NCBI GenBank assembly: GCA_963674965.2
Contig: CAXXFL010000002.1
Location: 608,001 to 672,000, forward strand
Reading direction: 5' to 3'
From: a bacterium
GTDB lineage: Bacteria; RBG-13-61-14; DATKZS01
DNA length: 64,000 nt
Made by a program: the position numbers and the translations under genes. Shown piece by piece: positions 10,689-13,444 of the stretch. Each line of letters opens with the position of its first letter. The first letter of the stretch is position 1. The notes under the pieces were generated by a model. The model was not told the origin of the DNA, did not search any database, and worked only from the letters and a program-made list of their open reading frames with translations.

Positions 10689-10916
10689 TCAGCTTCGGTC
10701 CGCGTCGCCCTTCTTGCCGAAACCCGGACCGAGCTTGTCCGAATGAAGCTCTCCGCCGCTGGCCCAGTTTTCGCGGTCGTGCTCCTCGATGATGACCGTC
10801 ACCCACTCGGGCTTGACCTCGAGTATTTCAACCATGGAGTCGGTCACGGCCCTGGCCAGGGCGCGCTTCTTCTCCACCGGCCTTCCCTTGGCTATTTTGA
10901 TCGTAACGATGGGCAT
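10689..10916 (-). CDS. 4-oxalocrotonate tautomerase family protein
   Basis: N-terminal (M)PIVTIKIAKGR with catalytic Pro1, and ENWASGG. Confidence 0.9.
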   Translation of the reverse strand: MPIVTIKIAKGRPVEKKRALARAVTDSMVEILEVKPEWVTVIIEEHDRENWASGGELHSDKLGPGFGKKGDADRS

Positions 10917-10935
10917 GTTGTTCACCTTTGAATCA

Positions 10936-10999
10936 AACGGGTAACCCATAGCTCGCCTATGTGGGCGACCGCCAGGAAGCAGTTCATCCCCTCCGCCAT
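10936..10999. repeat. REP-doublet repeat, partial copy A0 (one arm only)
   Basis: AACGGGTAACCCATAGCTCGCCTATGTGGGCGACC, followed by unrelated sequence. Confidence 0.85.
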
Positions 11000-11282
11000 A
11001 ACGGGTAACCCACATAGCTCGCCTATGTGGGCGACCGAAGGGAGCAGGTCGGCGCGTATAACTTTAATACCCGACCCGCGACTTTATATTTTCCAAGCAT
11101 AATCGCGGGAGAGCGGCAACCCCCATTCTTGGTACCACCCGACCTGCTCGCTATGCTCGCCCACATAGGCGAGCTATGTGTAAACATGAAAGCGGGCTGT
11201 CCTCCAAGACGGTTTGAGGTATAACCGTAAACCAAGGGGTTGCAATGCAGGGCCCCAAATAAATGAAGGGAGGTACAGCCCA

Positions 11283-12368
11283 ATGACAACTTATCTCGGA
11301 TTGGACGTGCATTCAAGGAGGACGGTGTTCGTGGCCCAGGAGGAGGACGGAAAAATAATCGCCCGGGGGGACGTGGCTACCGACCGCGCCGGCTTCGAGG
11401 AACTTCTCGGCCGGCTCGGAGGCGAGCTCGGGATCAAGACCGGCCTGGAGAGCGGGGCCCAGTCCTTTTGGGTCAGCGAGCAACTCTCCGAGCTGGGGTT
11501 TCACCCTTACGTGATCAACGCCGCCGAAGTGCGGGCCAAGTCGCTCCGCCCCAACCAGAAGAGCGACGGCCGCGACGCCCTCGAGATTTGCGACGGTCTG
11601 CGCCGCGATCTTTACGTCAGCCGCGTCTACGTGCCCGGCCGGTCCGTTCGCCGCCTGCGGTCCCTGCTCGGCCGCCGCCGTTTTTTCATCCGCCAAATGA
11701 CGTCCCAGGTCAACTCGGCCAAGGCCCTTTTGCGGGGCGAGGGAGTTCGAGTGTCTTTCCGCCTGAACACCGCCTCAGGCTGGAAGCGGGCGCTGGAGTC
11801 CTGCCCGGACTCCTTCCAGCGCGACCTTTTGCGGATGCACTTTCGGACCTGGCGTCAGGTCTCGGAGGAAGTCGCTCGCTTGAACAAGAAAATCGAAAAG
11901 GAGGCGGGCGCCCATTTCGCCGATGCTTATCCCCTGCTCCAGACCGTCCCCGGCGTGGGTCCGGTGACGGCGGCGACCTTTCTTTCCGTTATCGCCGACG
12001 CCGGGCGGTTCGAGCGGAGCGGCCAGGCGGTAAGCTACCTTGGACTCTGTCCGTCCAGTTGGGACAGCGGCGACCGGGTGGTCCACGGCCGTATCACCAA
12101 GCGCGGGTCCTCGGAGGCCCGCTCGATGCTGGTGGAGGCGGCCCATCACGCGGGCCGTCCCACTCACCCCCTCAACCCGTATTTCGCCCGGGTGGCGGCG
12201 AGGCAGGGTTACAAGAAGGCGGTGGTCTGCGTGGCCCAGCGGCTTTGCCGCGTCATGTGGAGAATGATGTTGGACGGCGAGGAATTCGACGCGGGCAAGC
12301 TCAACGTGACGCCCACGAGCAAGGTCAAGACGAGGAAGTATTACTGGAAGATCAAGGAGGCCGTTTGA
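11283..12368 (+). CDS. IS110-family DEDD recombinase/transposase
   Basis: YLGLDVHS, LESG and KSDGRDA supply the DEDD residues. Also TVPGVG, SYLGLCP, the SG catalytic serine motif and GRITKRG. RBS GGAGG. Confidence 0.95.
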   Translation: MTTYLGLDVHSRRTVFVAQEEDGKIIARGDVATDRAGFEELLGRLGGELGIKTGLESGAQSFWVSEQLSELGFHPYVINAAEVRAKSLRPNQKSDGRDALEICDGLRRDLYVSRVYVPGRSVRRLRSLLGRRRFFIRQMTSQVNSAKALLRGEGVRVSFRLNTASGWKRALESCPDSFQRDLLRMHFRTWRQVSEEVARLNKKIEKEAGAHFADAYPLLQTVPGVGPVTAATFLSVIADAGRFERSGQAVSYLGLCPSSWDSGDRVVHGRITKRGSSEARSMLVEAAHHAGRPTHPLNPYFARVAARQGYKKAVVCVAQRLCRVMWRMMLDGEEFDAGKLNVTPTSKVKTRKYYWKIKEAV

Positions 12369-12741
12369 CTCGTTGAGGTCGCGTCCGTGACTTGGCCGGC
12401 TTGAGGGCGGGCCAGGAGGCGCGAGAATCCGTGTCACTCCAAAATAGTTTTCGGCGACTCCTTGGTAACCCGTGGCCGCGAAGGCCTTCTATGTGTATGG
12501 AGCAACGCCGGGACACCGAACGTATTCGTGAGGCTTACGACCTCTTGACCTCGAATAGATGGTTGGAGGGAGGCACGGACCGGGGGGCGCTTTTTCATCT
12601 TTCCGTCATGGGATTGACCCGAAACAATCCCGCCCTCCGTCCCTCGCCCGCTCGGTCCTCCGGTCATGATTCTTTCGGGTAAAGGAGGGTAGACGGAAAG
12701 AAGAAAAAGCTTTGGCAACTGGAGGATGAGACCGTCCAGGG
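12369..12741 (+). ncRNA. Predicted bridge/seek RNA in the IS 3' non-coding region (boundaries approximate)
   Basis: Contains GTAACCC (12465-12471) and CTATGTG (12489-12495), matching the two halves of the insertion target, separated by a GGCC-GCGAA-GGCC hairpin. Confidence 0.7.
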
Positions 12742-12841
12742 TTGACAATTTGCTTTCATAGATGGGTTACGCCGGAGGTCCCACGCCTGGGGGCAATGAA
12801 GGTTACCTGTTGGGCATGTTGTTCCCATTTGAATTAATCCA

Positions 12842-13444
12842 TCAATTTCCGTTCCGTATATTGTTCTTGGCTTTCTCGATAAGGTTATATACTCTCCTCA
12901 CGTCATCGATATATTCGAAACTCGGGATAAATGGGCCGATGTTCCATGTAGACCAAGCCGCTATCTTCCCATTGTCAAAGTGGGCTGGGAAAAATGACTT
13001 TGCACCGAAAAATATGCTCCCGCTTCCGTCTTTTTTCTCCGAGACGCCGACCATGCGGGGAGTAGCCAGACACAACGTCAATTTATTTAATTTCATTATT
13101 TTTGAAAGAAAGATAATCCTATTTGTGGTCACGGCATAGATCGTATTCTTTCTTCTATAAGATTCAATTAATAGTCTTCCGAATGAGAAGTAGAATCCAA
13201 GTAACATAAATGGAATAGAATCAATTAAGATAAAAACGGACGGCCAGAATTTTCCGGGGTTTACCAAAATGCCTATTTCTAAAATGATTAAGAAAGAAAA
13301 TATATAAGTGCCGAAAAAAAACATGATTACTTCATCTGCATATGGCCTCATCTTCAATCCGGCATCAGGATAGCCGTACCAGAGTATCTTTTCCTCTGGG
13401 AGCAGGATATTTTCGACGTCTTTTTTGCTTAATGGCCTCATCAA
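12842..13444 (-). CDS. Hypothetical membrane protein, bacterial PH-domain-like; AT-rich
   Basis: LLPEEKILWYGYP, two TMs, YAVTTNRII and DGSGSIFF motifs. Confidence 0.75.
   Translation of the reverse strand: MMRPLSKKDVENILLPEEKILWYGYPDAGLKMRPYADEVIMFFFGTYIFSFLIILEIGILVNPGKFWPSVFILIDSIPFMLLGFYFSFGRLLIESYRRKNTIYAVTTNRIIFLSKIMKLNKLTLCLATPRMVGVSEKKDGSGSIFFGAKSFFPAHFDNGKIAAWSTWNIGPFIPSFEYIDDVRRVYNLIEKAKNNIRNGN

Follow-up and report, generated by a model that had tools for sequence, protein, structure and literature searches.

RNA-guided IS110/IS1111 recombinases are under development as programmable DNA-insertion tools, and to our knowledge few IS1111-type systems have been characterised. Here, we describe the analysis of an insertion sequence (IS) at positions 11179-12762 of a 64-kb stretch of bacterial DNA (the window, whose first letter is position 1). 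We hold with high confidence that it is an intact and recently active IS1111-type element of the IS110 family, carrying a 361-amino-acid (aa) recombinase and, in its 3' non-coding region (NCR), a bridge or seek RNA of about 150 nt. Its main value lies in being a ready-to-test ortholog and an entry to a comparative data set.

Members of the IS1111 group have subterminal inverted repeats (IRs), terminal extensions of 7 bp on the left and 3 bp on the right, an NCR downstream of the transposase gene and no target duplication (PMC11187229). The window element resembles ISEc11, ISPa11 and ISKpn4 in having the same IRs and extensions and no target duplication, as well as a long NCR downstream of the gene and a predicted DEDD transposase of similar size, 361 aa here as against 330-350 aa reported for IS1111 (PMC11187229). 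Its RNA is laid out like the IS1111 seekRNAs, with two short opposite-strand matches that overlap at the insertion point, the complement of the top strand coming first (PMC11187229), and its predicted length of about 150 nt compares with 148-172 nt for the long forms of IS1111-type RNA (PMC13604230). The donor-binding bases of many IS1111 orthologues lie in a multiloop (PMC11208160), and the same layout is found here. Unlike ISEc11, ISPa11 and ISKpn4, the window element is known from sequence alone, and its target and guides differ from theirs.

Two further systems provide points of comparison. IS621 likewise possesses two binding modules with the same core dinucleotide and one guide per DNA strand in each (PMC11208160, PMC11208158), a short post-core extension that matches the non-cognate partner and a repetitive extragenic palindrome (REP) as target, and its C-terminal domain and Ser-Gly motif align with those of the window recombinase. 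It differs in that its RNA lies 5' of the gene rather than 3', in that the guide order relative to the gene is reversed, in that long subterminal IRs are present in the window element, and in that its donor-matching bases occupy a simple internal loop instead of a three-way junction around a hairpin. ISPpu9 of Pseudomonas putida also inserts into REPs at a defined dinucleotide, with several copies and with solo modules elsewhere; unlike the window element it belongs to the IS110 group, is described as lacking subterminal IRs and has its bridge RNA upstream, its downstream small RNA Ssr9 being dispensable and not the guide (PMC12288879). REP targeting, which the window element shares with ISPa11 (PMC11187229), was already known from ISPa11, IS621 and ISPpu9 (PMC11187229, PMC12288879). 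The target, the guides and the clade described here are new and the RNA of the clade lies outside Rfam; the principle is not new, and this is not a new kind of system. The clade appears distant from the studied ones, as gauged by a best match of 33% identity among PLSDB plasmids and not by direct comparison with named IS elements.

The element, its ends and its genomic copies

The following features define the element and its insertion site.

11179-12762, plus strand: the whole IS, 1584 bp, from alignment of copies and comparison of the junctions with the uninterrupted repeat
11179-11185, plus strand: left terminal extension TGTAAAC, 7 bp, its first two bases a copy of the TG core, read from the sequence
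11186-11201, plus strand: left subterminal inverted repeat ATGAAAGCGGGCTGTC, pairing with 12744-12759
11283-12368, plus strand: transposase (bridge recombinase) gene, 361 aa plus stop, from Pfam, NCBIfam and homolog starts
12744-12762, plus strand: right subterminal inverted repeat GACAATTTGCTTTCAT (12744-12759) and the 3-bp extension AGA, read from the sequence
11150-11178, plus strand: left part of the interrupted REP-like repeat, GCTATGCTCGCCCACATAGGCGAGCTATG, from junction comparison
12763-12770, plus strand: target-side copy of the TG core and right target half GGTTAC, the right part of the interrupted REP, from junction comparison

The boundaries and the TG core at both junctions, as given in the original prediction, proved exact. 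An uninterrupted copy of the repeat, GTAACCCACATAG at 11005 on the minus strand, yields the empty site GCTATGTGGGTTAC with a single TG. The left junction is ...CGCCCACATAGGCGAGCTATG-TG / TAAACATGAAAGC (reading ...GCTATG-TG, with TG at 11179-11180) and the right junction is GCTTTCATAGA / TG-GGTTACGCC (reading TG-GGTTAC, with TG at 12763-12764). As the empty site carries a single TG, the inserted DNA amounts to 1582 bp plus one copy of TG; the length of 1584 bp follows the IS1111 convention of counting the left TG as part of the IS. Beyond this shared TG there is no target duplication, and occupied sites show one TG per junction and insertion at one defined position. The two subterminal repeats pair at 12 of 16 positions, the first eight perfectly, and in the closest relative with known flanks (L053, transposase 64% identical) both arms are altered together, to ATAAAAGC / GCTTTTAT. 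The 3' NCR measures 394 nt (12369-12762) and the 5' NCR 104 nt (11179-11282).

The ORF (open reading frame) list starts the transposase gene at TTG 11214; homologs start at ATG 11283 (MTTYLGLDVH...), which is preceded by GGGAGG at 11268-11273. The protein matches PF01548 (3.2e-17) and PF02371 (5e-22), that is, a DEDD RuvC-like N-terminal domain and a C-terminal Tnp domain, and scores 219 bits against a cut-off of 140 with the NCBIfam model NF033542, 'IS110 family RNA-guided transposase'. Similarity to the solved chains of IS621 and ISCro4 is restricted to the C-terminal domain (E 4e-10), in which the catalytic-type Ser-Gly motif GLCPSSWDSG aligns to their GLTPRRYESG; the N-terminal alignment to these chains reaches only 3-6 bits, too weak for the DEDD residues to be assigned one by one. 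Across 38 homologs D8, E56, D95 and D98 are invariant, as are G254 and G263, while L255 and S258 are at least 90% conserved and the consensus at this place reads ...DSG. The catalytic residue of IS621 is S241 (PMC11208158). Together with the subterminal IRs, the 7- and 3-bp extensions and the long 3' NCR, the Pfam and NCBIfam matches bear out the IS110/IS1111 assignment made from the sequence at the outset, and by the features tested we place the element in the IS1111 type of the IS110 family.

The genome that contains the window (7 contigs, 6.5 Mb) holds four full copies, 100% identical across 1582 bp, and two solo ends.

C6:787629, minus strand: full copy, left flank TTCTATGTG, right flank TGGGTTCAC, outside any REP
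C6:741685, plus strand: full copy, left flank GCTATGTG, right flank TGGGTTACC, in a REP-like repeat
C2:619181, plus strand: full copy, that of the window, left flank GCTATGTG, right flank TGGGTTACG, in a REP-like repeat
C2:7293, minus strand: full copy, left flank GCAATGTG, right flank TGGGTTACC, in a REP-like repeat
C7:767060, minus strand: solo end, a 149-bp right-end fragment, right flank TGGGTTACG
C2:90343, minus strand: solo end, a 61-bp left-end fragment, left flank GCTATATG

The complete identity of the four copies argues for very recent movement. For the annotation of this genome, the element accounts for four insertions and two solo ends, mostly in REP-like repeats. All six junction-bearing sites fit C[T/A]AT[G/A]-TG-GGTT[A/C], and the 13-mer CTATGTGGGTTAC occurs uninterrupted seven times where 0.14 would be expected, and 20 times with at most one mismatch. 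This 13-mer lies within a hairpin-forming, REP-like unit (consensus of the uninterrupted copies CGGTCGCCCACATAGGCGAGCTATGTGGGTTAC), the target being in the 3' arm of the hairpin. The target deduced originally is thereby borne out by agreement among the sites of all copies and by the enrichment of CTATGTGGGTTAC.

Contigs from two sequencing runs of one sample join 11178 to 12763 with a 2-nt overlap, skipping the 1584 bp; we rejected them as evidence of excision, as their shorter side is 28 nt and any intact REP could yield them. Read depth is 86.6 within the IS and about 21 outside it, figures that do not give a copy number.

Predicted bridge RNA and its target guides

The RNA predicted in the 3' NCR has an outer stem that encloses a three-way junction, of which one arm bears the target-binding internal loop.

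12429-12578, plus strand: predicted bridge/seek RNA, about 150 nt, with outer stem P1a (12429-12434 / 12573-12578) and P1b (12437-12440 / 12565-12568)
12452-12510, plus strand: target-binding arm, with P2 (12452-12456 / 12506-12510), P3 (12458-12461 / 12499-12502) and the P4 hairpin (12474-12486)
12462-12473, plus strand: 5' loop strand UUGGUAACCCGU, the right-target guide, able to pair with the top strand of TG-GGTTACC, the core by C:G and a G.T wobble
12487-12498, plus strand: 3' loop strand UUCUAUGUGUAU, the left-target guide, in the same sense as top-strand CTATG plus TG, with core UG at 12494-12495
12522-12528, plus strand: GUAUUCG, a candidate guide for the right donor, in antisense to TG-TAAAC (core followed by nt 1-5 of the left end)
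12529-12553, plus strand: P5 hairpin UGAGGC...GACCUCG, 98% paired, with AU<->GC exchange in 26 of 71 sequences
12554-12564, plus strand: donor-matching segment AAUAGAUGGUU, in which AUAGA equals the right IS end, UG (12560-12561) the core and G (12562) the first right-flank base

Within the target loop, GTAACCC (12465-12471) is the reverse complement of the right target half and CTATGTG (12489-12495) is identical to the left half plus core, so that in the order of the guides the complement of the top strand stands 5' of the match in top-strand sense. Apart from these two, the 3' NCR has no 7-nt match to the 20-nt target, and both stand at the coordinates and in the orientation that the original prediction gave them; a single 7-mer match within 394 nt is expected about 0.7 times by chance and so is not significant alone. 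The minimum-free-energy (MFE) fold of 12430-12530 reproduces the predicted layout of an internal loop closed by CUCC/GGAG and split by GGCC-GCGAA-GGCC (12474-12486). To the earlier account the present analysis adds the donor-matching segment at 12554-12564, the outer stem that extends the RNA to about 150 nt, and a wider clade.

The guides agree with the sites at which the element is found. The left guide is identical to the five left junctions at 6-9 of 9 positions, and the right guide can pair with the five right junctions at 8-9 of 11. At the copy outside any REP (C6:787629) the left guide is identical at 9 of 9 positions, as against 6-7 of 9 at REP sites, and only at bases matched by the loops of the RNA does this site agree with the others. 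No copy lies at a site unrelated to the target, all four full copies and both solo ends fitting the guides. The longest exact runs of the window guides with their own junctions are 7 nt on the right and 9 nt on the left.

For a comparative analysis, the DNA of relatives was taken from species-representative genomes (32) and metagenomes (60); those that entered the RNA analysis have transposases 41-64% identical to that of the window. Their 3' NCRs have a common scaffold, which begins with the outer stem, P2, P3, a 12-nt loop strand, a P4 of 4-5 bp and a second 12-nt loop strand, and continues with a linker CCGAA..GA.AAC, the P5 hairpin (UGAGGC-GAAA-GACCUCG), GAAUAG-N-core-NN-UGG and the closing strand of the outer stem. 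RNAalifold, applied to a structure-blind MAFFT alignment of 47 sequences, recovered P3, P4 and P5; 7 of the 14 pairs show compensatory changes, for example in P3 (columns 84/131: CG 23, UA 19, UG 5), P4 (columns 105/115: GC 20, AU 15) and P5 (columns 163/183: AU 33, GC 14). A covariance model (R1) built from the full structure of 30 pairs gave 73 matches in 91 sources, all of them on the strand of the transposase and, where the gene was present, downstream of it. Its one match in the window, at 12412-12591 (106.4 bits, the window sequence being in the training set), lies 3' of the transposase ORF, where the RNA had been predicted. Such a model across homologous copies had been proposed at the outset, and it reveals a conserved scaffold with stem covariation over 71 distinct sequences. 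In the model-fitted alignment (A4), 82.6% of 2028 cells pair, as against 72.1% when the 3' letters are shuffled and 39-46% with slid partners, and for five pairing measures none of 500 shuffles attained the observed value. Column entropy approaches its maximum in the guide columns, whereas it is close to zero for the stems, the final U of the loop and the core G.

The guides co-vary with the flanking DNA. The loops were taken from alignment columns as two 12-nt segments, one directly 3' of the first P3 strand and one directly 5' of the second, the IS ends were placed by means of the subterminal repeats, and each loop was scored against each junction by the longest exact run. The right guide matched its own right junction over a mean of 7.43 nt, and those of other elements over 3.68 nt (35 non-redundant elements, of 43 with a junction), with runs of at least 7 nt in 22 of 35 cognate and 8 of 1190 non-cognate pairs. 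The corresponding means for the left guide and left junction were 7.0 and 3.94 nt (31 non-redundant elements, of 39), and runs of at least 7 nt occurred in 20 of 31 cognate and 11 of 930 non-cognate pairs; several mis-located left junctions were kept in, which makes this test conservative. The mean was reached in 0 of 20000 permutations for either guide, and the expectation that guides and targets change together in homologs is thus upheld. In L053, P3 and P4 have changed, yet the guides GUAACCCAU and UUCUAUGUGUAU are kept, and this element sits in CGCCCACATAGGCAAGCTATGTG / IS / TGGGTTACC, the same repeat as the window element.

These results bear on the notion that the two 7-mers are the scar of a captured REP target, the protein itself choosing the site by the REP hairpin. 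The position of the target within a palindromic REP-like repeat and the chance expectation of about 0.7 matches per NCR would fit it. Nevertheless, the two matches are of opposite sense with a conserved hairpin between them, and the loop positions that they occupy are homologous in 73 relatives, in which the loops fit the differing flanks of each element; one copy lies outside any REP at a site alike only in the guide-matched bases; and the NCR holds no other part of the REP. We consider this notion hardly credible, and continue with the view that the loop strands are target guides.

Four observations on individual relatives and regions touch on the RNA and its guides. The right junctions of L057 and L060 read CATAGA-AG-GAT..., while their left junctions and donor segments give a TG core; the right-target guide itself encodes AG, which may represent a tolerated core mismatch or a one-base difference in register. 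The left boundary of L024 (2440-2500) resembles an inverted right end plus right flank (CCTCAT-CTATGAAAGCGGGG), which suggests a rearrangement between copies in the palindromic target. In P5, an 8-nt tandem duplication GACCUCUU (12539-12546; GACCUCUU-GACCUC within 12535-12553), common to the window element and L053 only, allows two alternative hairpin registers. Finally, a conserved module of about 130 nt (12590-12720) lies between the bridge RNA and the right inverted repeat, and also in L053, L059, L017 and L080; it contains the invariant motifs AATCCCGCCCTCCG and GGTCATGATTCTTTCGG and a long stem, TTTTTCATCTTTCCGTC / GACGGAAAGAAGAAAAAG, that appears to change compensatorily in L059 and L080, and it is absent from relatives such as L074, in which only 32 nt separate the RNA from the IS end.

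Donor side, proposed mechanism and expression

A bridge RNA would be expected to carry the same core in its target and donor parts, because both partners recombine at the same core. In the window element UG occurs both at 12494-12495 and at 12560-12561, and across the family the core of the donor segment equals that of the target loop in 45 of 47 elements, over three core types (TG 28, CG 11, GG 6). The segment AAUAGAUGG (12554-12562) repeats the right IS end plus core, with ATAGATG exact at 12555-12561, and the segment following P5 repeats the right end (RE) and core in each element. The two bases after the donor core equal the first and second right-flank bases in 26 and 15, respectively, of 30 non-redundant elements (0 of 20000 permutations). 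The base that follows the donor core resembles the handshake guides of IS621, which bind the non-cognate DNA by pairing once strands have been exchanged (PMC11208158). A handshake extension in the target loop was unsupported, as position 11 equals the second base of the left end (LE2) in only 15 of 35 elements; position 10 and LE1, being U and T in 30 of 35, vary too little to be informative.

For the left end, the last part of the linker, termed the J2 tail (the 5 nt before the last two linker bases ahead of P5), was compared with LE1-5. It formed 3.6 Watson-Crick pairs with the cognate left end as against 2.07 with non-cognate ones (0 of 20000 permutations; 23 non-redundant pairs), with G:C, C:G, A:T and T:A classes represented at LE3-LE5. 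This test leaves out L024 (rearranged left end), L085 and L093 (mis-located left junctions) and L066 (an RE-LE junction), and the junction of L053 was set by hand. In L066 (1-160, a metagenome contig) the right end meets the left end through the core, GCTTTCATAGG-TG-TAATGATGAAAG; it stems from either a circle or a tandem copy, and the donor junction of this element can be read off it directly.

Several points weigh against the reading of an intact element with a bridge RNA for both target and donor. In the window element GUAUUCG pairs with the left end at only 5 of 7 positions, so we call it a candidate. Both AAUAG, the left-donor part of the donor segment, and CATAG at the right end are nearly invariant, which puts their pairing beyond the reach of covariation. 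Runs with the own flank fall short of 7 nt in 13 of 35 relatives on the right and 11 of 31 on the left, four of the short-run relatives being accounted for by a second arm (below). The counts from shuffles and permutations overstate significance, since A4 is an alignment that was fitted to the structure of the model and its sequences are related. Of all helices the outer stem P1 has the poorest support, with only about 65% of cells paired over the family, and the MFE structure of the window pairs part of it with another partner. An Rfam 15 scan of 10800-13000 at E <= 1 yielded no family, no RNA run was listed as containing the stretch, and a sigma-70-type promoter scan called 0 sites in 11100-12850 and 0 at the natural RE-TG-LE junction of L066. 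Folding energies are unremarkable (z = -1.78 for the 396-nt NCR, with 3 of 100 shuffles folding as well; z = -0.15 for 12430-12530, with 83 of 200); such z-scores are uninformative for an RNA with large open loops. As the folding energies are not significant, the case rests on comparative evidence, with position and orientation. The IS1111 assignment, for its part, is drawn from anatomy. The RNA is predicted here from its sequence and covariation, and that the recombinase-RNA pair is 'complete' and 'programmable', as originally proposed, we infer from these features.

Some of these points would fit a narrower role, in which the RNA guides target choice only, the protein recognises the IS ends by their subterminal IRs, and the matches at 12554-12562 and 12522-12528 are by-products. 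The near-invariant AAUAG and CATAG leave their pairing unprobed by covariation, the J2 tail pairs at just 5 of 7 positions in the window element, end recognition may differ in IS1111 elements (PMC11187229), and a short seekRNA of 82 nt sufficed for ISEc11 (PMC11187229), the equivalent here being about 12429-12510, which excludes the donor segment. Such a role would nevertheless leave unexplained that the donor core changes with the target-loop core in 45 of 47 elements and through three core types, that in 26 of 30 the post-core base agrees with the right flank, and that the J2 tail co-varies with LE3-LE5 over four pair classes. We judge it unlikely, and prefer an RNA that addresses both the target and the donor.

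An RNA of this kind would probably be made as the 3' part of the transposase transcript, then be processed, and bind the recombinase, to judge by analogy with IS621, ISEc11 and ISPa11. Likewise, the IS would be excised as a circle that joins its ends as RE-TG-LE. In the target loop, the right target half and core would be bound on their top strand by the 5' strand UUGGUAACCCGU, and the left half and core on their bottom strand by the 3' strand UUCUAUGUGUAU; at the junction, AAUAGAUGG would bind the bottom strand of the right IS end and core, and GUAUUCG, a weak candidate, might pair with the top strand of the left IS end. The RNA would in this way bridge the circle junction and CTATG-TG-GGTTAC, and strands would be exchanged at TG with no target duplication. 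RNA production, protein binding and the direction of recombination are proposed here by analogy with the described systems.

As to expression, three terminator-like sites were found, all inside the ORF, where 2.1 would be expected. An outward-facing TTGACA at 12742-12747, 15 nt before the right end, is conserved there in most relatives. At a circle junction it would give TTGACA-15 nt-TG-T-AAACAT, so that 18 nt would separate TTGACA from AAACAT and the core would lie as an extended -10; we offer this as a guess at a junction promoter, one that the consensus scan did not call. With no promoter predicted by the scan and with seven perfect target 13-mers unoccupied, one could suppose that the element, though intact, is immobile in this host, that its RNA or junction promoter is perhaps unexpressed, and that the four copies are relics of one burst. 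We regard this as distinctly improbable: the copies are 100% identical over 1582 bp at four places, the reading frames and RNA features are all intact, and truncated solo ends at further target sites show repeated activity. Thus, a recently active element remains the preferred reading.

When the RNA is read on the opposite strand, it appears to share the module order of IS621: each of the two modules then runs from a bottom-type guide through a hairpin to a top-type guide with its extension. On this view, the 'reversed order' seen in IS1111 RNAs may simply reflect a recombination site whose polarity is opposite relative to the gene; if so, the other strand, relative to the gene, would be exchanged first.

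Second arms, relatives and other loci

In four relatives model R1 has a second match, which comprises the target-binding arm only (L021:3765-3819, L039:3766-3820, L043:3772-3826 and L023:3600-3658). In all four the loops of the extra arm agree with the observed flanks over 9 + 8 or 8 + 8 nt, and in L021, L039 and L043 the canonical arm matches them by just 4-5 nt. In the host of L021 the 14-mer empty site deduced from the extra arm is an abundant repeat, with 34 exact occurrences and 68 when up to one mismatch is allowed, as against 7 for a reversed control; the 17-mer deduced from the canonical arm occurs twice with at most two mismatches, the differing lengths making the two counts not strictly comparable. 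The extra arms may represent natural retargeting through arm duplication, or a split guide. Taken jointly, these observations allow the tentative proposal that the window element belongs to an uncatalogued, widespread IS1111-type clade whose RNA is the mirror image of that of IS621 and which is naturally retargeted by a second, free-standing target-binding arm. If this were true, two-arm elements would be natural split or dual-guide bridge systems.

The window element offers a compact and apparently active ortholog whose target guides, core, left-donor guide and ends are readable from sequence, the right-donor guide being a weak candidate. Model R1 and about 70 relatives with flanks form a natural data set for the guide rules of IS1111-type RNAs, among them the loop register, the range of core types (TG, CG, GG) and the base that follows the core.

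The proteins closest to the window transposase are 66% identical to it, and 1541 of 8000 candidates scored lie at E <= 1e-20. Members of the clade occur in metagenome-assembled genomes labelled Planctomycetota, Kiritimatiellae, 'delta proteobacteria', Eisenbacteria and others. At E <= 1e-30 the transposase was found in 0 of 4 genomes of the same family, and genomes of the same order contain two partial matches, in 2 of 6. The best tblastn matches among PLSDB plasmids are at most 33% identical and are labelled only 'IS110 family', with no IS name.

The genome of the window also contains other loci of this kind. Degenerate remnants of related elements lie at C5:429766-429930 and C1:9817-9996; in one, a left-end-like piece (87%) precedes an inverted right-end-like piece (84%), and the other is an 87% fragment whose start falls within the donor half of the RNA. 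At 11 places, for example C6:277304-278089, tblastn found another IS110-family transposase, 26% identical to that of the window element. A second, divergent bridge-RNA-like locus (L117; C7:511584-511757, minus strand) scores 37.5 bits with R1 (E 1.7e-7) and has its own right end, TTGACAAGCTTGCTCATAGA-TG, and a loop, GTGGGTGGCCCT, complementary to its own right flank, GGCCACCC. An IS110-family ORF, 28% identical, lies about 1.9 kb upstream of it at C7:513695-514687 on the minus strand.

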